From Naegleria gruberi (Eukaryota), in the NCBI GenBank assembly GCA_000004985.1, contig GG738917.1: DNA of 64,000 nucleotides, one strand, 5' to 3'. Each line of letters begins with the position of its first letter. Positions within the stretch are counted from its first letter, which is position 1. Below are positions 11,142-61,313 of the stretch, piece by piece. The translations under genes were made by a program, and so were the position numbers. Under the pieces are notes generated by a model. The model was not told the DNA's origin, did no database searches, and worked only from the letters and a program-made list of their open reading frames with translations.

Positions 11142-11215
11142 GCCGTCATAGCTCAGTTGGATAGAGCACAGGACTTCTAATCCTGGGGTCGTGGGTTCGA
11201 GCCCCATTGTCGGTA
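11142..11215 (+). tRNA. tRNA-Arg (anticodon TCT)
   Basis: Cloverleaf parsed by hand. D-arm is GCTCAGTTGGATAGAGC, anticodon arm is CAGGA-CTTCTAA-TCCTG (anticodon TCT), and the T-arm GTGGGTTCGAGCCCCAT contains the B box. The acceptor stem has one U-U mismatch. It closely resembles eukaryotic tRNA-Arg(UCU). Confidence 0.8.
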
Positions 11216-38188: not shown

Positions 38189-40171
38189 TTATTCAGTTTT
38201 CAACTTTCCAGAAGATGGTTCTTCAACAATTTCTTGGGATGGTTGTTTTTCTTCAGTTGACTCCTCATTGACTTTTTCTTCAGTGGTTGTTTCAGTAATT
38301 TCAGATTGTTTTTCTGTTGTTTGTTCTTCACCTCCTAATTATTTTAAATATTATTAATTATTAATTATTAATTGTAAATATTTACCTTGACCAAACTCAT
38401 TTACTCTCTTCAAGTCAACTGGATAAATCCATCTTTGATAAAGGTAAATGAAGAAAATGACGTCATCTCTCAAACAAGCAAGCTTGTACATATTTGGACT
38501 TTGAATAACAAAGGCAAACAAGTCATCAACAAATGTGTTAAGGGCCTTATAGACATAGGATTTCCATGGCATGGCAGCAACAGATTTGAGCTTGTAGTTA
38601 ACATAAACTTGTGGAACAGAGTTGAGGAAACCGAAAACATAGATAAATCCAACAATTGTGGACAAGACAAAGCTATACCATGATCTAAATTCATGATTGT
38701 AGAGAGCATAAATTGCATAACCAACAATCAATGGATAGAATACATAGGAAAGATAAGTGATGGCTTCGTTATCATATTCCTTAGTCTTGCTTTCAACATA
38801 GCTAGACTTGTCAGTAATCTCGATAAAGTATGGGAATTTGTTAGTTTTCTTGATTGATACATCTACAACCTTACTAATCTTCCAATATTCGATTAGTAAA
38901 CCAATACCATTACTAATTAAAATCATCCATGAGGTTTCATTATCGAACAAATAGAGGAAAATAGCTGTCTGGAAGAAGCAGTTCACAAAGATTGAACGAA
39001 TTGATAAACCTTCCATATTCTTTTGATTTCTATAGAATTGAATATCATTCTTGAATGCCAAAAAGTCAAAGACACTATGTAAAATGGATACAACAATAGT
39101 AATAGCCAACAAGTATGGATTAGTTTCAAAAAGCATACGCTTAATTTCATCAGACTCTGCTTCATCAGATCCAAATTGTTTTTGCATTCTGAGGGATTCA
39201 TCCATTTGTAAATGGAATTGCCACTTCCATTGATTTACAATTGACAAGTCCAATTCTAAAGGTAAGCTTTTCAATGTATCATTGAGAGCAACAAAGTGAC
39301 TTCTAATTGTCCAAAAATCATTAAAATAAAGAACTGGATAATATCTCTTTGGATTTCCACGCATTGGTAATAAGTGAATTGCTGATTGGAAATGAGCAGG
39401 AAGAGAACTAAGTGGAAGAGCATCATGCATATCAACCATACTCAAAAACACTTTTGGTAAATAATGAGGAATGTACAAATCTCCAACTTCTGCACTGCTT
39501 TCAGTTTCATTTTGTGTAGATGAATCAAAGAGTAAATTTCTCTTCTTATTCCTCTTTACTTTCAAAACTCTACTAAATGGATGAGTAATGTGTAAAATTC
39601 GTTCTGGTAATGAATTTCCTTCCTCCTGTAAGAAAGCATGGAAATGAACTGATTTGTTACCAATCAATAAATCATAAAACACTGGATAATCAGTTTGATT
39701 ATTAAATGTCAAATTAAATGTTTTGTGATTACTTTCACGATCATCATAATAAACTCTATCTTGCAACAATAATTCATGATGAATAGGTTCCGATGAAGTA
39801 TAGTTTACACGATCATAGATTTTTCGCATTAATTTTCTATCACTACTTGTTGATAAATAGAGTTGCAAAGTCATGGCACACGATTTACGGAAGGCAGGAG
39901 CAGCAACTATGGATGCTGATGAAGGTGCTGATTGAGTTGTTGTTGTTGTTGTAGTTTTGGAATCTAGTGAAGAAGCAGCACCATTATTTGCTTGATTTCC
40001 ACCACCTCCGAACAAACCTCCAGAAATCATCTTCATTACGAAAAAGACAATCAACACTCTAGAAATGGTTGAAAGTATTGTTGAGAAGGTGGATCCTTCT
40101 TCATTGTTGGTTCTGGCTGCTGTTGTTGTAGCAGAAGACTGTTGAGCAACAGTACCACCACTTGAAGACAT
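38189..40171 (-). CDS. CLPTM1 (cleft lip and palate transmembrane protein 1)-family membrane protein, 2 exons (38386..40171, 38189..38334)
   Basis: It resembles CLPTM1 over its length, with a lumenal domain then a TM region (FKNDIQFYRNQKNMEGLSIRSIF...LLIEYWKISKV). A 51-nt AT-rich intron (GTAAAT ... TTAG) contains a (TTAATTA)n microsatellite. The small 3' exon encodes an acidic tail (GGEEQTTEKQSE...). Confidence 0.65.
38335..38385. repeat. (TTAATTA)n-like AT microsatellite inside CLPTM1 intron
   Basis: The sequence attattaattattaattattaattg is visible directly. Confidence 0.6.
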
Positions 40172-40346
40172 TTTTTATTTCAATTTTATTTGAACACGTT
40201 TTTGGAATTTTAAAAAAGTATCCATCGATACTTTGTTGAAATCCATTGAGGAAATATTAATCAATTCCAAAATAATCCGCTCAATAGGGAAGAACACATG
40301 CTCTAGATCTGTACAATGCCAAAAAAAGTACAATATCTCTCAATAT

Positions 40347-41097
40347 TTATTGAAAAACGAGAGCCAACAAGGCAAGCAAACATCCAACTAAAACAATGAA
40401 TGAATTTTCAGATGTTCTTAAGGCAGCACCAGTTTTGCCAGTATTGGTATTGGTATTTCCCTTACCAACACTTGCAGCAGCAACAACTTTACCTGCAACA
40501 TTGATATCAACACATCCATAATATGGAGCTTCGTTTGCAGGAATCCACATCCATTGCAAAGTACAATTACTGCAATATCTATCTGGAATGGTAACATTTA
40601 CAACAGTATCACCAGCAGCACTCTTGATATTGTTGGCAAGAATGGTGGAAGCACCTCCAGCATAATCAAGAATTGAAATTCTCATAACACCACCTGTGTT
40701 GTTTTTTCATATAAATTGAATTTAATTTAATTTACTTTCCAATAACAAAACATACCGTGATTGGCTTGAATATTCCATGTGATTGGGACTACTTGATTAG
40801 CCTTGTAATTTTGTGTTGCCTTGGTCTTGGCAACGCTTCCACATGGTGATGTTTTTTGTGTGAGAGCCTGATGTCAAACAAGTGACGACGGTTGGCATGT
40901 GAAAATGGGTGAGATAGTGAAAGAGGAGTAGTAACAAAAAAAACGTGTTGATAAATAATATTAACATTGTTAATACCTACATCTGATCTACCAAAAGTTC
41001 TTGGCTTTGGGTTAATGAATTGACCGTGACCATTTGTGAATTGGAAAATGGTAAATAATAAAGTGAAGGCCAAGATGGCAAGGACAGTTGTACGCAT
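40347..41097 (-). CDS. small secreted, probably GPI-anchored protein with LPMO-like N-terminus (His1-Gly-x-Phe-x-x-Pro-x-x-Arg), 3 exons (40981..41097, 40756..40867, 40347..40693)
   Basis: A signal peptide (MRTTVLAILAFTLLFTIFQFTNG) is followed directly by HGQFINPKPRTFGR. The spliced product (GTAGGT and GTATGT donors, CAG acceptors, phases consistent) has a second His (NIQANHGG), paired Cys residues, and a C-terminal Ser/Gly/Thr-rich stretch plus hydrophobic tail (GPI signal-like). The unspliced read-through frame is AT-rich junk. Confidence 0.45.
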
Positions 41098-41297
41098 TTG
41101 TTGTGTTTGTTTTTTTTAAAGATGGGCTTTTAGAGTGTGATGATTGGAAACATGCGGATCAAAGACAGATGACAGGGATTCTTGATGATACAGATCGATT
41201 TGTCCAGTACAGAATACATTCAAATTATTTTTGACATAGGCCAGGCGGTAATTAATAGTAAATTGAGGCAATGGGATGTAATTAGTTGAGTTTAGGT

Positions 41298-42308
41298 TTA
41301 CTCTCTAGGATGTCTGTGTTGTTTGGATTGTTTGAGAGATTTGAATTTCCTGTCAAATTCGTCCTTTTCCATTTTTCTTTTCACACACCTTTGGATGGAT
41401 TGTTTCAGGTGTTGAGCTTTCCTTCTGATTCGTTCTGGTGTGATTAATCTCTGAATTTTCACACCCTTAACAAACTTTTTTTTACAAATTACAACTTCTC
41501 GTTTTACAACATATTTTCTAACATCGTCCGATTTTGAAAGATTGAATAATTTACGAATTTTGGAAGCTCTCTTTGGTCCCAGAGTTTTGGGATGAATTGA
41601 ATCTGTGAGTCCAGGAATTTCTATTAAGAAATTAATTTATGAAACTCTAGTTTCAAAAACTTACCAAGAGCACCCTTTCGAATAATTATTGCAGAGACAG
41701 CTCTCAAATTTCTATCAAGAATGCATCCTTTTAGTTTAATTCTTCTCCTTTCTCCTTTTCTCTTTGCTTGCCATCCTCTATATCCAAACTCTCCTGGTCT
41801 CCTCAATATACAAGAAGTTCCGTATTTTATCAATCCAGGAGTGTAACAAGTTCCCAAATGGTCTGAAGCTCCTCTATCCAATATTTCATGATTCAAACAC
41901 CTCGTATTGAAAACCTACCTAATTTTAAATATATAATCTCTAAAATCATTTCCAATACAACTTCCATCAATTTCATCACCCAATTTCCTTCCTCTAAATG
42001 CTTCAGCACCTGAACCATAAATTTCAAATAATTTAGTTCGTCCAGTTTCTCTACAAGCCAATTGAAACTAACATTCAATTTTTCATCATTTTAATTAATA
42101 TCATATTTGATCATCATACCTTCAATTGATGATAATAATTGTGTTTCAAAGTAAAAACACCCTCCGAAAATCCCCACTGTCTAACATCAACATCCTGTCT
42201 CATGTGTTCAAAGCCACTTCCGACAAGCAAATCCAATCTTTTCAGAGGATTTGATTGGGGAGGATATTTGGCTGGAGTGAGATTGTTTGGGCGAAGCATT
42301 TTTTTCAA
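41298..42308 (-). CDS. ribosomal protein eS6 (RPS6)-like gene, multi-exon; 3' exons 41298..41620 and about 41665..41880 well supported, 5' exons uncertain
   Basis: The last exon encodes [42 protein letters not shown]...[16 protein letters not shown], nearly identical in pattern to eukaryotic eS6. The preceding exon encodes ...[41 protein letters not shown] (cf. [35 protein letters not shown]). A 44-nt intron (GTAAGT ... AATAG) lies between them. Sequence 5' of this is only weakly eS6-like. Confidence 0.55.
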
Positions 42309-48253: not shown

Positions 48254-48935
48254 TTTTTGCAGTATAAATTAACTATCTATTAAAATGGAAGGTGTGCAAC
48301 AATTGATGATTATTATGTTTGGACGTGAACATTTTCATAAGATGGAAAGAAAAACATCTTCCTGATTATTACATTGTTTAGAAGTGATTACAGTTGTTTT
48401 TTCTATTATTGATAAAAATTGAAATTTAAGGTACCAATCTGCATGTTCACAAATCCCCCATTCACGAACCATGGCTGGTTAGGAATGCAGCAATCATCTA
48501 TGAACGAGGAAACCTACAACGAAGCATGTTTCCAGTTCTATGTCATGCTCAAGATATGTGACTACAGAGTCTTCATCTTGGTTAACCTCAAAGGTCAGAT
48601 TGACTCAAAAAAGTCGAGTTTATGTATTCCTACAGAAAAGATCCTGTAGAAGTACAGTCAATGGTTTTACAAATACTGCATCCTCAGTGATGTTTTGGTT
48701 GGGAAAGTGAGAAATGTTGTGAGGAGAAGTTATGGTTAAAATATTGGGAATTATTAGAATTTTTGGATCAAGAAAATATTTGAATTGAAGAAAGTACAAA
48801 AACCGAGTAATTAGAGAAACATGTTGTACACCAACAAGAACTATTTCATCAATATTGATTGAGATGGTGTTTGTTTTTGAAATATTTCAGGATGGACTAT
48901 TCAATGTCAAAAATAAGATTTCAAATTACATGTGA

Positions 48936-49016
48936 AGCAGGGGTTCCCGAGTGGTCAAAGGGGGTAGACTCAAGTTCTACTGCGCAAGCTTCGTGGGTTC
49001 AAATCCCACCTTCTGC
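48936..49016 (+). tRNA. tRNA-Leu (anticodon CAA), class II with long variable arm
   Basis: Sequence is GCAGGGGTTCCCGAGTGGTCAAAGGGGGTAGACTCAAGTTCTAC-[variable arm]-GTGGGTTCAAATCCCACCTTCTGCA. Anticodon stem is GTAGA/TCTAC, loop is CTCAAGT (anticodon CAA), and there is a B box GGTTCAAATCC. It closely matches eukaryotic tRNA-Leu(CAA). Confidence 0.8.
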
Positions 49017-49670
49017 AGATTTTGCTTCTTTCTCCCTTAGTCTTTTTGAATAGACCACTATTTGCAAATATTTATTGTTAGTCCGACGTCTAGTTTCTAT
49101 GGTAAAAACTTTGTTCAATTTCATAAAGACTCTATAAAGATAATCAATAAAGATAACACTGACCTCAAATATTCCAGCCTAAACAATTTGAAAAATACCA
49201 TGCACAAAAAAGAAGAAAGACTACAAATTTGGCAAAGTGAAGGAAAAAGACTACAGCACCACAGGTTCCCAAGTTGTCTCCAACCTCAGTACTGATGTGG
49301 CTCGACGATAAATCGGACGGGATGAGGTGCATTCATCGTGATATGGCCGTAGCCATTCAATTGTTGAAAATTTGAAAAATAAATCAAATTCAAGCATGTT
49401 CTTGATAACAGGAAATATTGATATTTGTTGAGATTTATCATTTCACCACTAACAAATCAAATTGGAAAATTTAATTGTACTAATTTTTTATGGAATATTT
49501 TAAACTAGCTCATAAAAAAATGATGTTAAAACTGAGGCTTCTAAAAACGGATGTACAAATAGTTTTTAAAAAATAAAAACACAATTACCAAGATAGATAT
49601 CCAAACCATCACTACAAGAAAATAAATTGTGTGAAAATAAATGATCTTAGAAAAAATCATAAAATGTTAT

Positions 49671-49741
49671 CTCGAGTGCCGGGAATTGAACCCGGGTCGC
49701 CAGAGTGACAGTCTGGAATGCTACCACTATACCACACCCGA
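49671..49741 (-). tRNA. tRNA-Asp (anticodon GTC)
   Basis: The reverse complement reads TCGGGTGTGGTATAGTGGTAGCATTCCAGACTGTCACTCTGGCGACCCGGGTTCAATTCCCGGCACTCGAG. Anticodon loop is CTGTCAC (GTC), and the B box is GGTTCAATTCC. The acceptor stem is fully paired (one G-U). It closely matches eukaryotic tRNA-Asp(GUC). Confidence 0.8.
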
Positions 49742-50247: not shown

Positions 50248-51381
50248 TTACGAATTAAACATGTGTTTGATTAGTTCATAGGTAGAAATCATAATTGCAC
50301 ATGAAGGTGCCACTTTGAGACATCTTGGCATGAGTCCTCTCGAAAATCCTTTCATTCCCTGTGATTTGTAAATACTCCTCGAAATGTCAAACACTCCCAC
50401 ATGATTAGAATTGACATTTTGTGCATTTGTCTTGATTACATCGAATGGATGTGTAAGAGTTGTTGCAAAAACACCTCCAATAGCTCCACTCAGAAATGAA
50501 ATCAAAATTAAATTACTGCATTTCACATCATCCCCAGAAGATAATCTTGCCTTACAATCCTTATTTGTTGCAATCAATAAATTATACTTTAAATTCTCGT
50601 AAAACATCCAATAAAGTGAAGAAAATGGAACATCTCTCAATAAAGTTGCTGAATATCCTCTCAGTAATTGATCCCACCTCAAATCACGTAAATAAATCTT
50701 TGTTTTCGATACTTGAGAAGCAGTTTTGAAATATTCAATCGGATTTGTAACTGTTACTGCAATAATTCTTGCCACACAACCTGAAATCAATGGAGTAAAA
50801 GTGTGTCCATAATCCTTGAATTGAACCTTGAATTTCTCATAAAGTGAATAGTAAATTCCATTATTAGGAATGGTCATTAACAATGTTGGCCTAAGTCCTC
50901 TCCACAATGTTGCAATTCCTTCATGTTTTACAATAGAAAGCAAGCCTCGGAATGTTGATTGAGGTAAATGATGATGTTTTGTATGAAGTTGATGAGAATT
51001 AGATTGTGTCTGAAGCCTACTTTTAATTACATCCAATGGACAAGTAAATACAGCAGTAAGACACGAACCAAATGTTGATGCAATGATTTGTTGAGTGAGT
51101 GGAGCAGGTTTACCAAAGGAAGAATGATACTTTTCTATTAGGAAATTAGATATAGATGAAGATGATGATGATTGTATAGGTTGATCATGATTATTATTAT
51201 TATGAATATTAATGGCAGATAAAACAGATGGTGCTGATGAAGGAATCTTTGTATTATTTAAACTATTTAAATTATTATTGTTATCATCAATCATTTCTAA
51301 TCGTGAAAGTATCACTCTCGGATTATCATGCACAATAACCGATGATGCTGATGATGATGAATACTTCTCTTCAATGTTCAT
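50248..51381 (-). CDS. mitochondrial carrier family (SLC25) protein with about 100-aa Asn/Ser-rich N-terminal extension
   Basis: It has three carrier repeats with P-x-[DE]-x-x-[KR] motifs (PLDVIKSRLQ, PIEYFKTASQ, PFDVIKTNAQ) and 6 TM helices. ATG verified. Confidence 0.75.
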   Translation of the reverse strand: MNIEEKYSSSSASSVIVHDNPRVILSRLEMIDDNNNNLNSLNNTKIPSSAPSVLSAINIHNNNNHDQPIQSSSSSSISNFLIEKYHSSFGKPAPLTQQIIASTFGSCLTAVFTCPLDVIKSRLQTQSNSHQLHTKHHHLPQSTFRGLLSIVKHEGIATLWRGLRPTLLMTIPNNGIYYSLYEKFKVQFKDYGHTFTPLISGCVARIIAVTVTNPIEYFKTASQVSKTKIYLRDLRWDQLLRGYSATLLRDVPFSSLYWMFYENLKYNLLIATNKDCKARLSSGDDVKCSNLILISFLSGAIGGVFATTLTHPFDVIKTNAQNVNSNHVGVFDISRSIYKSQGMKGFSRGLMPRCLKVAPSCAIMISTYELIKHMFNS

Positions 51382-52222: not shown

Positions 52223-55200
52223 ATGGGAGTTGATGGCAGTAATAGTGGAAACTTTACTGAAGTTTCGAATATGATTGCAAACATGGAACAAAATAAGCAA
52301 CTATTCGAAACAATTACATCAAGAGCTACATTTGCTAGACATCATCGAAAACCACAAACTAGCAACAGCACGGAAAATTTAGAAACAAGAACAACATCAA
52401 ATAATTTATACGAAAATTTATTGGAAACTAAAGGTGAAAATATTATTGGTCGTAAATCAAGTAATAGTTCGTGGACAGTAGAGGAAATTCCACTCTCTTC
52501 AAGACAATCTAAAAATTTAATGGAAACTTTAAACGAAACTCAACTAAACCTTACTGTTATTGTTCAAGACGAAAGTGATGATGCAATTATTAGAAGTGAA
52601 AGTGTAAAGAGTGATGAATCAATAACTATTCTAAATGAACTCTATGATGAGAATTCAATATCCGAAACTGAAAACTATTCGAATAGAATGAATGAAAATA
52701 AGAGAACTCCAATTCAGTCCTCAACTTCAAAGAAATTAAAATTTGATGCACTGATTCCAAACTCTATCAAGAATATGTTTCTTAGTACGAAACGTTCTCA
52801 ACCTTCGAATAGTTTATACGAAGAAGAAAAACCCAAAAAAAATACCAAAAATAGAAAATCACCATCCCTTAGAAATGAAGGTGATTCAAATTCATCCACT
52901 TCTTCACCAATTGCTACTCCAAATGTATTAGATTCCATTGATAATAATGAAAACATAATTTCCAATTGGATTTCAATATTTGAAAATTTACAAAAATCTC
53001 AAAAAGAAGGAAATGATTCAACTTCGACCAGTAAGAATGGAAGTATTATTACAGTATCATCACCACCTAATACTACTACTATTGATAATAGCAACAATAC
53101 TCAATTTTGTATGAATGGAAAAGAGTTTATTGATCTTATTCGAATGTCCTATCAGAATCTCTGTAAATCCAATTTAGTCACTTTGGATGGCAAAGTGTTA
53201 TATGCTTTTGTTTCTACATTGATTACAATGAATTTGATGGTAGAATCTTCAACAACAATAGTTTCTAATGATGAAAATTCTATTCGATTATCACTTGCTT
53301 CAAATCTTTGCAGAAACGAAACTTTATTCGAAACTTTAAACCTCACCTTGTATCCAGAAAGAATCAAACAAGAAAAAGAAAAGGTCTTTGATGCATCATT
53401 ACAATTTCTAAAGCATCAAGTCACTTGTCAACCGCCTTGCGCGCAAATTTTCAACTCACAAACTAATAACTCGACAGCTAGCAGCAATTTTAATGATCGT
53501 AACGAACAAGAATTGAACATAGATAAGAATATGCTACTACAACGAAGAGAATCAAAATTATTGCTGTCATTCGAAGAATTTTTAACTGTCAATAATCAAT
53601 GCAAGATGGGATCATCATTATCTCATGAAGATGTAACAAATTCTACTATTTACAAAGCCGAGGATTTAGAAAAACAAGAAAAAACAACAAATAATTCAAC
53701 ATTTAACGAAATGTCATCACATCAATCAAATGACAAATTAGTTGAAGAAAATGCATCACAAACAACAACAACAGACTTGGCAATCTCCAATTCAGCAGCA
53801 AACTTAACATTACTCTCAAATTTAGGAACCAACGTCAGCAATCACATCAAACAACCTTCAAATAATTCTAATTGTAACAATACTCATTCAACAATTTCAT
53901 CCATCACCACTCCTCCATCTTCTTCCAATGAAGAAATCTCCAATCCATCATCATCTACTCCTTCTGGTCCATCTCCTTACGAGTTGAAATTAAAAATTGG
54001 AGAGAAAAATCTTTCAGAATTGAAACAACAATTAAAAGATAGAAAACACAGATATGGTTTTTTAACTCCGACTCAGTTTTTGGAGTTTGGATTGAGGGCT
54101 GGTTTTGATGAGGAGGAGTTTGCTTCGATATTTGCAGTTACTTATTCAACATTAATGTCAGCTCATCAATTAATTCCACAAATGCAATATGTGATGAAAA
54201 TTATTCTAAATGATGAGAAACTTCCAAAACCAATTACTGATGAAGAGGATGAAGAGGATGAGGATGGAGATTCTGGTGATCAGAATAGAGGTTCATTCTT
54301 GGAAGATGACTGTAAATTATCCAAAGAAGAAAAGAATAATGTTATTGGAAGAGTTTCTCGATTCTTAAAACAATTTGTACTTTTATCATTTTCTGATTTT
54401 AAATATGATAAGCAATTCCATGAGATACTGTATTCATTTGTTGCTCCATTGATTGGGTTTATTGATTTTGAGGCAAGTAATGGAGCTTTAATTCAGGAAC
54501 AAGTTGTTGATTTGGTTGAGAGAATTACACTTGTAATATCGGGAGCTCACGAAGATCAGTTTTGTCAAACTGAAGTTGCTCCAAAACCTCTTATCAAAAA
54601 GCTGCCAACTGATCCAAGAAAAATCAATCTTATAGATATTGATCCAGTTGAGATTGCAAGACAATTGACACTTTTTGAATTTAGCTCATTTGAGAAATTG
54701 AGTGCTAAAGAATTATTGGGAGCTTCTTGGATGAAAGATTCCAAAGAGTGGACAGCACCAAATGTCACCCAATTAATTTGGAGATCTAATCAGCTTACTG
54801 ATTGGGTCAGCACTTTTATTTGTAGTATAACTAATTTAAAGGATAGAAAAAAAGCTCTGAAACATTTAATTCATGTAGCAGATGCTTGTCTCGAGATTCA
54901 TAACTATAATACTGTATTTGAAATTGTAATGGGTCTGATTTCTCAACCTGTTTACCGATTAAAGAAAACTTGGGAAGTACTCAAGGAGAATGATTTACAA
55001 CGAGTTTGGAAACGATTGGAAGATATAACAAGTTTCCCTGGTAATAGAAGAGTTTACAGAGATCAGATACAAAAGGTCATTAAGGAATCTGTGGTAAAGA
55101 TGACTCCTTGTCTGCCCTATCTCGGAGTTCACTTGAGTGATTTGGTCTTTTTCGATGAAGGAAACAAGGATTCAATGGAGAAGGGAATCACTACTTTTTA

Positions 55201-55378
55201 CAATTGTACAAAACGATCATGTATGGGTCAAATTGTTTACCAAATTATTGCTGTTAAGAAAATTCCATATAACTTCCAAAAAGTTGACTTGATAGAACAA
55301 TTCATTTGGTGGCAATTTAATAGTAAGGTGCTACATGACGAAAATGAACGAGATAAGCTTTCTAAAAAGTGTGAATAA
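52223..55378 (+). CDS. Ras guanine-nucleotide exchange factor (Cdc25-family RasGEF with REM/RasGEF-N domain) with long Asn/Ser-rich N-terminal region
   Basis: The C-terminal 450 aa match the RasGEF catalytic domain (IDPVEIARQLTLFEFSSFEKLSAKELLG...WVSTFICS...NYNTVFEIVMGL...PCLPYLGVHLSDLVF). A REM-like block precedes it. ATG verified. It is a single exon. Confidence 0.8.
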   Translation: MGVDGSNSGNFTEVSNMIANMEQNKQLFETITSRATFARHHRKPQTSNSTENLETRTTSNNLYENLLETKGENIIGRKSSNSSWTVEEIPLSSRQSKNLMETLNETQLNLTVIVQDESDDAIIRSESVKSDESITILNELYDENSISETENYSNRMNENKRTPIQSSTSKKLKFDALIPNSIKNMFLSTKRSQPSNSLYEEEKPKKNTKNRKSPSLRNEGDSNSSTSSPIATPNVLDSIDNNENIISNWISIFENLQKSQKEGNDSTSTSKNGSIITVSSPPNTTTIDNSNNTQFCMNGKEFIDLIRMSYQNLCKSNLVTLDGKVLYAFVSTLITMNLMVESSTTIVSNDENSIRLSLASNLCRNETLFETLNLTLYPERIKQEKEKVFDASLQFLKHQVTCQPPCAQIFNSQTNNSTASSNFNDRNEQELNIDKNMLLQRRESKLLLSFEEFLTVNNQCKMGSSLSHEDVTNSTIYKAEDLEKQEKTTNNSTFNEMSSHQSNDKLVEENASQTTTTDLAISNSAANLTLLSNLGTNVSNHIKQPSNNSNCNNTHSTISSITTPPSSSNEEISNPSSSTPSGPSPYELKLKIGEKNLSELKQQLKDRKHRYGFLTPTQFLEFGLRAGFDEEEFASIFAVTYSTLMSAHQLIPQMQYVMKIILNDEKLPKPITDEEDEEDEDGDSGDQNRGSFLEDDCKLSKEEKNNVIGRVSRFLKQFVLLSFSDFKYDKQFHEILYSFVAPLIGFIDFEASNGALIQEQVVDLVERITLVISGAHEDQFCQTEVAPKPLIKKLPTDPRKINLIDIDPVEIARQLTLFEFSSFEKLSAKELLGASWMKDSKEWTAPNVTQLIWRSNQLTDWVSTFICSITNLKDRKKALKHLIHVADACLEIHNYNTVFEIVMGLISQPVYRLKKTWEVLKENDLQRVWKRLEDITSFPGNRRVYRDQIQKVIKESVVKMTPCLPYLGVHLSDLVFFDEGNKDSMEKGITTFYNCTKRSCMGQIVYQIIAVKKIPYNFQKVDLIEQFIWWQFNSKVLHDENERDKLSKKCE

Positions 55379-55441
55379 ACTTTTAAGGCATTTCCAAAAC
55401 AATGAAACAGGCATATTCCAAGAACTTTGGCTATCGATTTA

Positions 55442-57909
55442 TTAAACATTTGGAGTGGCAACGTTACCTCCTGAAGCAACTGGAGGGGCAACACCTTTTC
55501 CTCCTTCATGTCCACAACATGAACAAGTAAAGCAACAACAGAGAGGACAAATACAGCTACTGAGTTGTTCTATCTTGATATTCTCTTCAATGAATCTATT
55601 CAAACTCTTAGTACAGAAACGAGGAATGGTCGGATCATTGGTTCTCATTTCCATTTCAATCAAGAAGCATTGTAAAACAGTATCAATAGCACATTGGATA
55701 ATAACGCAGAACAAACTAGCTACTGCGAAACCAATAATAAAAGCAATAGCAGCCAAGAAGATTGGATTTGAAATTTCCTTTTGATCAGTGTTAAGGAAGG
55801 TAGTCTTTGCAGCAATACCGTATGTGAAAAGGCATGTCAAGGCAGAAACAGCTAATTTGGAAAGAACCAAAACAGCTGTACTCAAACTTTGAGTAATAGA
55901 CATTTGAATTGGATTTCTAATCATCAATAAGAAGGCATTCTTTGCAGATGTAAGGAAGCCAGTACCATACATGGCACATTGAACGTAAGCTTGTCTGTTC
56001 AAGAATTTGATAATCTTTTCAATAATCCACAAGACTGCTCTGACATACCAACCACATCCCTTAACAATACGATTACCCTTAGAGGCTGTTTCCAATTCTC
56101 TTTGAATCTTTTCAAAGATCAATCTTAACATTTGAATAATAGCAACAATCAATGAACCAAAAGCAGCAGTACCAAGATGGAAAACGGCTGTTCTTACAAA
56201 AGCTCTGACAACTGGCATACCCAAAACGAATCTCTTTTCTCTTCTCCAATACCAAGAGGCAATAGCACCACTCAAAGATAAAAATTCAGCTGCTTGAATA
56301 AATGCTAAAATCCATAAACCACCAAAGATGTGATATGCGAAAATTGCTCTAGTCCAGGTGGTCATTGTATATTTCACAGCACCTCCTGAAATATGAGTAT
56401 CTCCTGAAGAGTACAAGAAGATACTGACAACACACCAATAAGCAGCAAAAAGACCAATAATAATAGCAAAAATAATTGGCATAATGAGAACCTGTGGCAT
56501 GTACATGATAGACTTGGAGCTTTCTTGAATAATACCAATAGCTCTTCTAATTCTCATAATGAAAATAGCAGAAACAATAGCAATTAATAAACCAATTGCC
56601 ATTGAAGCAACACCACACCATAAAATAACTTGAGAAACAGTGGTTGAAAGCCCCTTCAATTTCATTACTTGACTTTGAGTGTAACCATAGTAGGTCATGA
56701 AAGCACCCAATCCAAGGAAAGATAAAACGCAAATAATTAAGGTAAGATAGACAACAACACCAGAGAAAATTCTAATGAAAAGCAAAGTAGCAAAACCGAG
56801 AATCATGGCAATAAGAAGGGCAGCAAACAATACTTTCCAACCTCGTGTGATATCATCCCAGAAAGTGCTTACTACATTACTGGCTTCATCAATAATTGAA
56901 GAATAATTTCCACCCAATTTCAACTTGGAAATTGTATCAATAATTTGACTTGCACTTGTGTTGGTAAGACTGATAGTAGGAACACATCTATTCACAACAT
57001 CCTTTAAAAGAGTTAATATCAATAAAATTATTTAAATACTTACATAATAAGTCAATTGTGTTGAAACAGCTTTTGTAATGTCATTGACAGGGAAAATCTC
57101 ATCTCTATCTACTCTCTTGGCACTACAATAACTCAAAAATGGAATGTCAAAACCAGCAAGTTCATATGATGATGTAGTTAATTCTGGTGGACAATCAGCA
57201 GTTCTGTTCAAAAGTTCCAAAATAGTATCACCTGTAGATCTCAATCCAGGACAATAGCTCACACACTAAATTTTTTAAGAAATATTGAATTATCTCACTA
57301 CTTACAATACCACCATAATAGAACGGATCCAAAACTTCCATAAACCACAAATAAGCCTGAGAACTAAGATCAGTCTTCAATGGCTTTACTTTCTGTTCAC
57401 ACAAAGCCATGGCTGTAGTATTCTTTCCACTATCAGAATTAATACAATCGATATCATAAGGTATTTTAATTACATTTGCAGATTCATTCTTGTTGTCTTG
57501 TCCGCAAGTTCTTCCCATATAATCCGTACCATCTATATGAAACATCAAATATTACATGATGAAATTTTAATACAATTAATATACAATTAATTGCTGAAAT
57601 AATTAACTTACAATACAATTTGCTTGGTGTTCCGTATTTGAAAGCAATGACTGCAATAGCAATCATACCAAGACAATATAAAACAAATAATATTAAACAA
57701 GGTATATCAGTAGGAAAACGTCCCTTTTTCTTTACACGAGTAATTTGAGGATTATACTTGGTGGCTTCATTAAAATTTGGTTTATACTTGGCATCTTCTG
57801 GTTCACGATCATCATCAGAATTATAATCGAGTTTACTGAATGATTCACCCTCTTTTGGTTCATCATCTTCATTACTGCCGGAATGACAAAAAGAAGGACA
57901 AGATGGCAT
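55442..57909 (-). CDS. choline transporter-like (CTL/SLC44) family membrane protein, 4 exons (57612..57909, 57306..57532, 57044..57265, 55442..57001)
   Basis: CTL hallmarks are present (KYNPQ...RFPTDIPCLILF, DGTDYMGRTCGQDN, a large Cys-rich extracellular loop, about 10 TM helices, and a C-terminal Cys-rich motif CPLCCCFTCSCCG). Introns are 79, 40 and 42 nt (GTAAGT donors; TAG/AAG acceptors). Phases are consistent and the exon lengths sum to 769 codons. Confidence 0.7.
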
Positions 57910-60944: not shown

Positions 60945-61313
60945 ATGGGAGCCAAATGTGCAAAGGATGATACTACCAGCTCATCTAAAGTTGAGGATAA
61001 TTCAAAGAGTAAATCGGAAGAGAGAAAAAACACTCCTCCGAAAGAAAAGAGAGAATTAAAAATTTATACAATGGATGATGTAGCCAAATCGGAATGTTGG
61101 ATGGTTGTGGATGGATATGTGGTGGATTGCACTGGGTTTGATAAAGACCACCCTGGTGGTGCCTATGCAATTGTACAATATGCCAAAAAGGATGCAACTG
61201 ATATATTTCTCTCATCACATGGCAAACGAGGTGTTGCCAAAATGAAGGCATTAGCCATTGGAACAATAGATGGTTATAAGGATATCGGAAAACAACTAGC
61301 AGATATAAATTAA
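60945..61313 (+). CDS. cytochrome b5-like heme-binding domain protein
   Basis: The 122-aa protein has the cyt-b5 motif (HPGGAYAIVQYAKKDATDIFLSSH) with paired His ligands. ATG verified. Confidence 0.65.
   Translation: MGAKCAKDDTTSSSKVEDNSKSKSEERKNTPPKEKRELKIYTMDDVAKSECWMVVDGYVVDCTGFDKDHPGGAYAIVQYAKKDATDIFLSSHGKRGVAKMKALAIGTIDGYKDIGKQLADIN

Follow-up and report, generated by a model that had tools for sequence, protein, structure and literature searches.

The 64,000-nucleotide (nt) stretch of Naegleria gruberi contig GG738917.1 analysed here (GenBank assembly GCA_000004985.1; called the window below) carries a three-exon gene on its minus strand, between positions 41097 and 40347, whose spliced 576-nt in-frame coding sequence specifies a product of 191 amino acids (aa). 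Judged from its sequence and from the structure model of a homologue, this product is with high confidence a mono-copper histidine-brace protein of the lytic polysaccharide monooxygenase (LPMO) superfamily at the cell surface. In the explanation we favour, the product would enter the secretory pathway, where removal of a 23-residue signal peptide would make His24 residue 1 of the mature chain. The mature chain would fold into a minimal eight-strand LPMO-type beta-sandwich of ~120 aa, and a glycosylphosphatidylinositol (GPI) anchor together with a short flexible linker would tether this domain to the outer face of the plasma membrane. A histidine brace, made up of His1 (through its side chain and the N-terminal amine) and His53, would hold a single copper ion, with Ala51 and Tyr111 at positions as in AA10 and AA15 enzymes. 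The protein would then play a Bim1/X325-like role, in which it captures Cu(II) at the surface and supplies reductases and CTR importers with it. Of this explanation, the structural part is very probably correct. The choice of copper handling over catalysis is a tentative one, at or just under even odds, and the explanation as a whole, that choice included, has about an even chance of being right.

The copper site is predicted from profile alignments, in which His1 falls opposite His1 of TdAA15A, AoAA13, MtAA16A and an AA10 enzyme; this residue is invariant in the family alignment A4. An earlier note on this DNA had recognised the LPMO-type start HGxhxxPxxR in HGQFINPKPR, and the alignments bear it out, since HGxLxxPxPR pairs with HGHLSVPPMR, HGYMYIPSSR and HAVVTVPTPR in the LPMO structures. 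The later histidine of the ANHGG motif, which had also been singled out, is the predicted second brace residue, His53. It is invariant or nearly so across the family and aligns with His91 of TdAA15A: ieanHgg stands opposite iqAPHiG, with Ala-Asn-His paired with Ala89-Pro-His91. The putative axial Tyr111 is invariant in the family, lies three residues before the cysteine of the last strand and aligns with Tyr184 of TdAA15A. The active-site residues of TdAA15A include Ala89, His91 and Tyr184 (PMC5823890). The second-sphere position two residues before the axial tyrosine is occupied by Glu or Gln in the AA10, AA11, AA13, AA15 and AA16 chains and by Ala in the window protein; most relatives have Ser, Thr, Gly, Asn or Ala there. 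In the eukaryotic members of the family, and not in the two Myxococcales proteins, an acidic residue is conserved one or two positions before that site. In the window protein it is Glu108 (Glu131 of the precursor), which might replace the missing second-sphere residue or might coordinate copper like the Asp of X325 proteins. The latter residue sits on a Gly-rich loop (PMC7529816). Candidates for such a ligand on the copper-proximal loops of the window protein are Asp105 (in AAGDT; mature Asp82) and Glu131, both in precursor numbering; N. fowleri and N. lovaniensis have Asn in place of Asp105.

The fold was modelled, with the family alignment, for the mature domain of the N. lovaniensis homologue (55% identical) rather than for the window protein itself. 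The immunoglobulin-like LPMO beta-sandwich anticipated by the earlier note was indeed predicted for this homologue, with eight strands, a mean predicted local distance difference test score of 91.9 and a predicted template modelling score of 0.85, and the top Foldseek matches were AA11, AA15 and AA10 LPMOs. Structure comparison gave the highest score for AA15 (14.3, with 119 of 125 residues aligned, a root-mean-square deviation of 2.2 Å and 27% identity), followed by AA13 and AA11 (12.5 each), AA10 (12.3), AA16 (12.0) and LaX325 (11.5, 15% identity). When the family profile was run against the PDB, TdAA15A (5MSZ, AA15) was the best match (E 5.6e-13) and MtAA16A (7ZE9, AA16; PMC10088020) the second best (E 8.5e-10), followed by 7P3U (AA11) and AoAA13 (4OPB, AA13), both at E 4e-9, and more weakly by several AA10 chains; LaX325 was not reached by the profile at E <= 10. 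In the comparison with AA15 all catalytic positions align, and ~70–80 residues of AA15 loops have no counterpart. The domain aligns nearly entirely with the bare LPMO core, having ~28 residues where AA10 and AA15 enzymes build their binding surface, and no conserved surface aromatic is evident in the short strand 1–2 region. With 119 aa it is shorter than JdLPMO10A (142 aa) and LaX325 (150 aa). The domain had been estimated at ~165 aa in the earlier note; this figure did not stand (119–123 aa), 168 aa being the length of the entire mature chain with linker and anchor signal counted in, while the cysteine pairs (four conserved cysteines), the linker and the GPI-type tail described in the same place did. 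The top viral matches to the fold were two unnamed proteins of 310 and 459 aa, which we suspect to be chlorovirus AA15-type proteins.

The likeness to LPMO-like and X325-type copper proteins proposed earlier is reflected in two Pfam matches above their gathering scores (E 8e-7 and 6e-6), well beyond what chance would give. PF20238 (BIM1-like_dom, the X325 family) matches residues 22–146 over positions 1–125 of the 140-position model (30 bits against a gathering score of 27), and PF03067 (LPMO_10) spans the C-terminal half of the domain (27.4 bits against 23). The NCBIfam model NF043005 ('SCE4755 family polysaccharide monooxygenase-like') gives the window protein 48 bits, which is below its 75-bit cutoff; the protein is related to this equivalog rather than a member of it. 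To assemble the family around the window protein, exon 3 was used as the query of an exhaustive HMMER search and the trimmed domains were used for a profile search. A word-indexed search found only the exon-3 open reading frame (ORF); with full-length queries the words of the low-complexity linker dominate, and only the WW-domain relatives are returned. The homologue search suggested by the earlier note led to proteins of N. fowleri, N. lovaniensis, Willaertia magna, Heterolobosea sp. BB2 and Vermamoeba vermiformis (two proteins), to several metagenomic proteins, to longer relatives with a transmembrane (TM) segment and a WW domain, and to Myxococcales homologues; the closest named homologues are those of Naegleria and Willaertia. 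LPMO_10 is matched by 12 of 12 aligned family members and NF043005 by every one of the 12 proteins in the trimmed alignment A3 (best E 1.2e-21), while PF20238 is matched by only 5 of 12 relatives at E <= 0.01. The positions that vary little or not at all are, in mature numbering, His1, Pro7, Arg10, Cys25-Gly26, Trp47, His53, Cys94, Cys97, Trp101, Trp103, Tyr111, Cys114 and Asp116. Of AA15 and X325, the family is nearer to AA15, and a separate status may be justified for it. A bolder suggestion, which we consider doubtful, is that the proteins of Naegleria, Willaertia, Heterolobosea sp. BB2 and Vermamoeba and the SCE4755 proteins of Myxococcales form a distinct, undescribed clade of the LPMO superfamily, common to bacterivorous amoebae and predatory bacteria, which would comprise the smallest histidine-brace sandwich (~120 aa), always surface-tethered and with a shifted second-sphere carboxylate.

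In the leader of the protein a basic n-region precedes a hydrophobic core of 14 residues (maximal Kyte-Doolittle value 2.95 over 11 residues), and Thr-Asn-Gly stands before the histidine. A signal peptide leaving His as residue 1 had been proposed earlier, and the -3/-1 rule together with conservation in the full-length homologues likewise predicts cleavage between Gly23 and His24, so that His24 would be mature residue 1. In all full-length homologues the histidine comes right after a comparable leader with Ala, Gly, Ser or Cys at -1, including the bacterial ASA/H and AFA/H sites. The linker that follows the domain has N-, T- or S-rich counterparts at the equivalent place in the homologues. 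Candidate omega sites are Gly165-Ala-Ala (Ser171, Asn173 and Ser174 are also possible) and are followed by a short polar spacer and by the hydrophobic tail Phe175–Phe190 (16 residues, mean Kyte-Doolittle value 2.81) with a single Gln after it; the last 19 residues up to the C-terminus are uncharged. This pattern speaks for GPI attachment and against a TM anchor; like copper binding, GPI attachment is predicted here from the sequence. The same type of tail is found in 8 of the 9 amoebal homologues, and nearly all homologues appear to be surface-tethered, by a GPI-type tail, by a TM helix (the WW-domain relatives) or by the C-terminal tail of the Myxococcales proteins.

Two other architectures were seen among the relatives. 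In the proteins P0015–P0021 from JGI/Logan metagenome contigs a TM helix and then a cytoplasmic tail come after an LPMO-like ectodomain with His1, and in P0015 and P0017–P0021 this tail carries a WW domain, an unusual, receptor-like arrangement. The homologues encoded by two Myxococcales metagenome-assembled genomes (L002, 5980–6756; L003, 5971–6738) have a signal peptide directly followed by His and a D/G/T/S-rich linker, and their C-termini consist of a Cys motif (GGCS), a hydrophobic stretch and an Arg cluster (RRRR). This tail resembles the MYXO-CTERM sorting signal. In both of these genomes the homologue lies among Ser/Thr kinase genes, and a DUF5122 protein is also encoded nearby; examined for copper or polysaccharide genes, the neighbourhoods were uninformative as to function.

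The gene model (Table 1) has the layout MRTTVLAILAFTLLFTIFQFTNG followed by HGQFINPKPRTFGRSD/ALTQKTSPCGSVAKTKATQNYKANQVVPITWNIQANH/GGVMRISIL...CSNCTLQWMWIPANEAPYYGCVDINV-AGKVVAAASVGKGNTNTNTGKTGAALRTSENS-FIVLVGCLLALLALVFQ. Exon 1 comprises 39 codons and ends with a phase-0 donor, GTAGGT, after ...GRSD; the acceptor of intron 1 is the sole AG within the last ~60 nt of that intron. Exon 2 carries the PCG motif, Trp70 and Ala74-Asn-His76 and ends at the donor GTATGT. The G+C content is 39% in the exons, 29% in the introns and 33.8% in the whole window. The outer coordinates and the three exons with these two donors given in the earlier note are confirmed, and its doubt about the unspliced ORF at 40789–41097 was justified as well, this 102-aa ORF reading on across intron 1 and entering exon 2 in a different frame. 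The annotated N. lovaniensis gene (protein P0022) has a single intron, in phase 0 after mature residue 16, which is the site of intron 1. The N. lovaniensis and N. fowleri (P0031, XP_044563674.1) proteins are colinear with the model and gap-free over both junctions. Because both read ANHGG without interruption over the ANH/GG junction, the splicing of intron 2 restores a conserved motif. Intron 2 is missing from the N. lovaniensis gene, and by this comparison it is a lineage-specific gain.

A metagenome contig (L001; ENA ERZ929261, run ERR1078381) is 98.5% identical to window positions 39676–41196, and that sample therefore contained a very close Naegleria strain. It retains the three-exon frame. 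Of its 13 differences within the gene, 7 lie in 175 nt of intron and 6 in 576 nt of exon; intron 2 alone holds 6 of the 13, a 3-nt indel among them. The exonic differences comprise three synonymous changes and three conservative replacements, two of the latter in the signal peptide. By these sequence comparisons an intact Naegleria gene occupies the locus. It could be argued that the spliced model is an artefact made of chance ORFs, or that a pseudogene without function is present, as only ORF fragments are visible without splicing; this is, however, extremely improbable in view of the gap-free colinearity with the annotated proteins of two other species over both junctions, the conserved position and phase of intron 1 in N. 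lovaniensis, and a natural variant, 98.5% identical, that keeps the frame with merely three amino-acid changes, all of them conservative.

The function of the protein is less certain than its structure. Proteins with a histidine brace serve either as potent oxidative enzymes or as factors that handle copper. We favour copper handling for several reasons. A surface tether is the rule in the family, and a GPI anchor is found in all X325 proteins and in only some LPMOs, among AA9, AA14, AA15 and AA16 (PMC8615602). The Glu/Gln at Tyr-2 is replaced by Ala, and the domain is very small (119 aa) and has no carbohydrate-binding module (CBM). In UniRef the orthologues already carry the automatic name 'Copper acquisition factor BIM1-like'. 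Furthermore, AA16 and X325 demonstrate that a protein may have a good brace and yet not cleave polysaccharides, for which reason copper capture is preferred to catalysis, and cleavage is regarded as the less likely role.

The opposite choice would make the protein a genuine minimal AA15-related LPMO at the amoeba surface, which would cleave chitin or cellulose in cyst-wall remodelling, in excystment or in attack on the walls of prey. We regard this as possible, though unlikely. The best match of the family in both sequence and fold is TdAA15A, which is active on chitin and cellulose; the conserved residues His1, Ala51, His53 and Tyr111 match those of AA10 and AA15, a Glu is conserved near the axial tyrosine, GPI anchors do occur on some LPMOs of the four families named above, and AA15 proteins have been reported from protists (PMC5823890). 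These points are opposed by the absence of the canonical Glu/Gln at the second position before the axial residue, by the near absence of substrate-surface loops, by the lack of a CBM and of an evident conserved surface aromatic between strands 1 and 2, and by the example of AA16 and X325, whose good braces carry no implication of polysaccharide cleavage.

Improbable, and more so than a minimal LPMO, is a surface copper protein with some other redox chemistry, for instance an AA16-like H2O2-producing oxidase, an electron-transfer protein, a partner in cupric or ferric reduction, or a signalling or adhesion ectodomain with structural copper. MtAA16A, the second-best profile match in the PDB, has a brace and makes H2O2, and receptor-like use of the ectodomain is suggested by those relatives in which a TM helix leads to a WW domain in the cytoplasm; on the other hand, nothing in the sequence is specific to such roles, and the Naegleria proteins have no cytoplasmic part.

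Several observations nevertheless weigh against the copper-handling explanation as we have put it. Active AA10 and AA15 enzymes have the same arrangement of Ala-x-His with an axial Tyr, and the conserved Glu at Tyr-3 might still act as a second-sphere residue. A small domain is compatible with activity, JdLPMO10A with its 142 aa being chitin-active according to the title of its PDB entry. The Asp ligand that defines X325 has only candidate counterparts in the window protein. No CTR or other copper gene was found in the ~15 kb scanned around the gene (33.1–47.6 kb). To these is added the use of a homologue for the fold prediction.

Within the library searched, no paper links Naegleria to LPMOs or Bim1, and a search there by the accessions of the orthologues found no citing paper. 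In Cryptococcus, GPI-anchored Bim1 is required for copper uptake during meningitis (PMC7924993). A study of copper metabolism in Naegleria describes uptake by N. fowleri only via CTR homologues and discusses the Cryptococcus precedent, with no mention of a BIM1-like protein (PMC9035749); no BIM1, LPMO or chitin term occurs in the supplements of this copper-proteomics paper. The BIM1-like relatives are uncharacterised in amoebae despite their automatic labels. To specialists a BIM1-like protein in Naegleria will be no surprise; the BIM1/AA15-like surface protein is nevertheless a concrete candidate for copper acquisition in this genus or, in the alternative, for oxidation of cyst walls or prey walls, in free-living as well as brain-infecting amoebae. 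N. fowleri infects the brain, and under the bolder suggestion of a distinct clade its protein might correspond, in amoebae, to Cryptococcus Bim1, which acquires copper and is needed in this copper-poor organ. The Naegleria protein may also be a surface antigen. The domain of ~120 aa offers in addition a minimal scaffold for separating what catalysis needs from what copper binding needs in LPMOs.

The gene is orthologous to FDP41_002031 of N. fowleri and to C9374_005049 of N. lovaniensis, with rearranged microsynteny. This is concluded from their flanking genes, which encode a RasGEF, a cytochrome b5, a mitochondrial carrier and a choline transporter and have counterparts in the window, 10–20 kb away, with up to ~83% amino-acid identity in the best-scoring aligned segments. 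As the identity of the domain is only 60% to FDP41_002031 and 55% to C9374_005049, the gene evolves faster than these neighbours. No paralogue of it was found within the window. Its immediate neighbours are a CLPTM1-family gene and the gene of ribosomal protein S6e, and the spacing of the three genes is very compact. Further away, the genes of U3 small nucleolar RNA (snoRNA), 5S rRNA and two tRNAs are grouped within ~1.3 kb, and a third tRNA gene was seen elsewhere in the window, which with these RNA genes is nuclear eukaryotic DNA. The source is a protist, as the earlier note supposed; a dictyostelid or a fungus as source was considered and rejected because of the Naegleria and Willaertia homologues and the microsynteny.

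Table 1. Features of the LPMO-like gene and of its surroundings (positions in the window; amino acids numbered from the start codon unless called mature)
Feature	Position	Strand	Remarks
Start codon	41097	-	ATG
Exon 1	40981..41097	-	aa 1–39: start codon, signal peptide, mature residues 1–16
Signal peptide (predicted)	41029..41097	-	aa 1–23 (MRTTVLAILAFTLLFTIFQFTNG); hydrophobic core, T/G at -3/-1
LPMO-fold domain (predicted)	40497..41028	-	aa 24–142, 119 aa; two introns within
His24 (mature His1)	41026..41028	-	predicted N-terminal histidine-brace ligand; profile alignment
Intron 1	40868..40980	-	113 nt, GTAGGT...CAG
Exon 2	40756..40867	-	112 nt; aa 40–76 and first base of codon 77
His76 (mature His53)	40757..40759	-	predicted second brace His, Ala74 two residues before; profile alignment
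Intron 2	40694..40755	-	62 nt, AT-rich, GTATGT...CAG
Exon 3	40347..40693	-	aa 77–191 and stop: C-terminal half of domain, linker, anchor signal
Glu131-Ala-Pro-Tyr134	40521..40532	-	mature E108, A109, P110, Y111; predicted axial Tyr, acidic residue at Tyr-3
Linker	40425..40496	-	~aa 143–166, rich in Gly/Thr/Asn/Lys; read from sequence
GPI-type C-terminal signal (predicted)	40350..40424	-	heuristic tail analysis
Stop codon	40349-40347	-	TAA
CLPTM1-family gene	38354-40171	-	starts 176 nt downstream of the LPMO-like stop codon
Ribosomal protein S6e gene	~41298-41900	-	intron-containing; ends ~200 nt upstream of the ATG
Mitochondrial carrier homologue	50251-50968		
RasGEF homologue	54044-55393		
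Choline-transporter homologue	57598-57908		
Cytochrome b5 homologue	61101-61307		
U3 snoRNA	48433-48661	-	
5S rRNA	49248-49354	-	
tRNA gene	11142-11215	+	
tRNA gene	48937-49017	+	
tRNA gene	49671-49741	-	

Among known systems the window protein is best compared with four. TdAA15A (AA15, PDB 5MSZ) is considerably larger (~195–200 aa), its strands 1 and 2 being joined by long loops, and has five disulfides, in contrast to the 119 aa and four cysteines of the window domain; it has Glu at Tyr-2 where the window protein has Ala, and it is a soluble digestive enzyme, whereas the window protein is predicted to be GPI-tethered. The X325/Bim1 proteins (LaX325, PDB 6IBH, PF20238) share with it the match to PF20238 and the GPI-type tail after a linker. 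The structural identity to LaX325 is, however, only 15%, this protein has no direct sequence match to the family profile, and X325 has been described from fungi only. MtAA16A (AA16, PDB 7ZE9) is a fungal, secreted and larger protein (~165–188 aa) with Gln at Tyr-2, which has the LPMO-type brace, lacks polysaccharide activity and makes H2O2. The SCE4755 family of Myxococcales (NF043005) has in common with the window protein the signal peptide directly followed by His, the PCG motif, the second His, CxxC, YYxCAD and the surface tether; it differs in the loop that precedes the last strand, which is longer and contains Cys, as in AA15, and in a MYXO-CTERM-like tail in place of the GPI signal.
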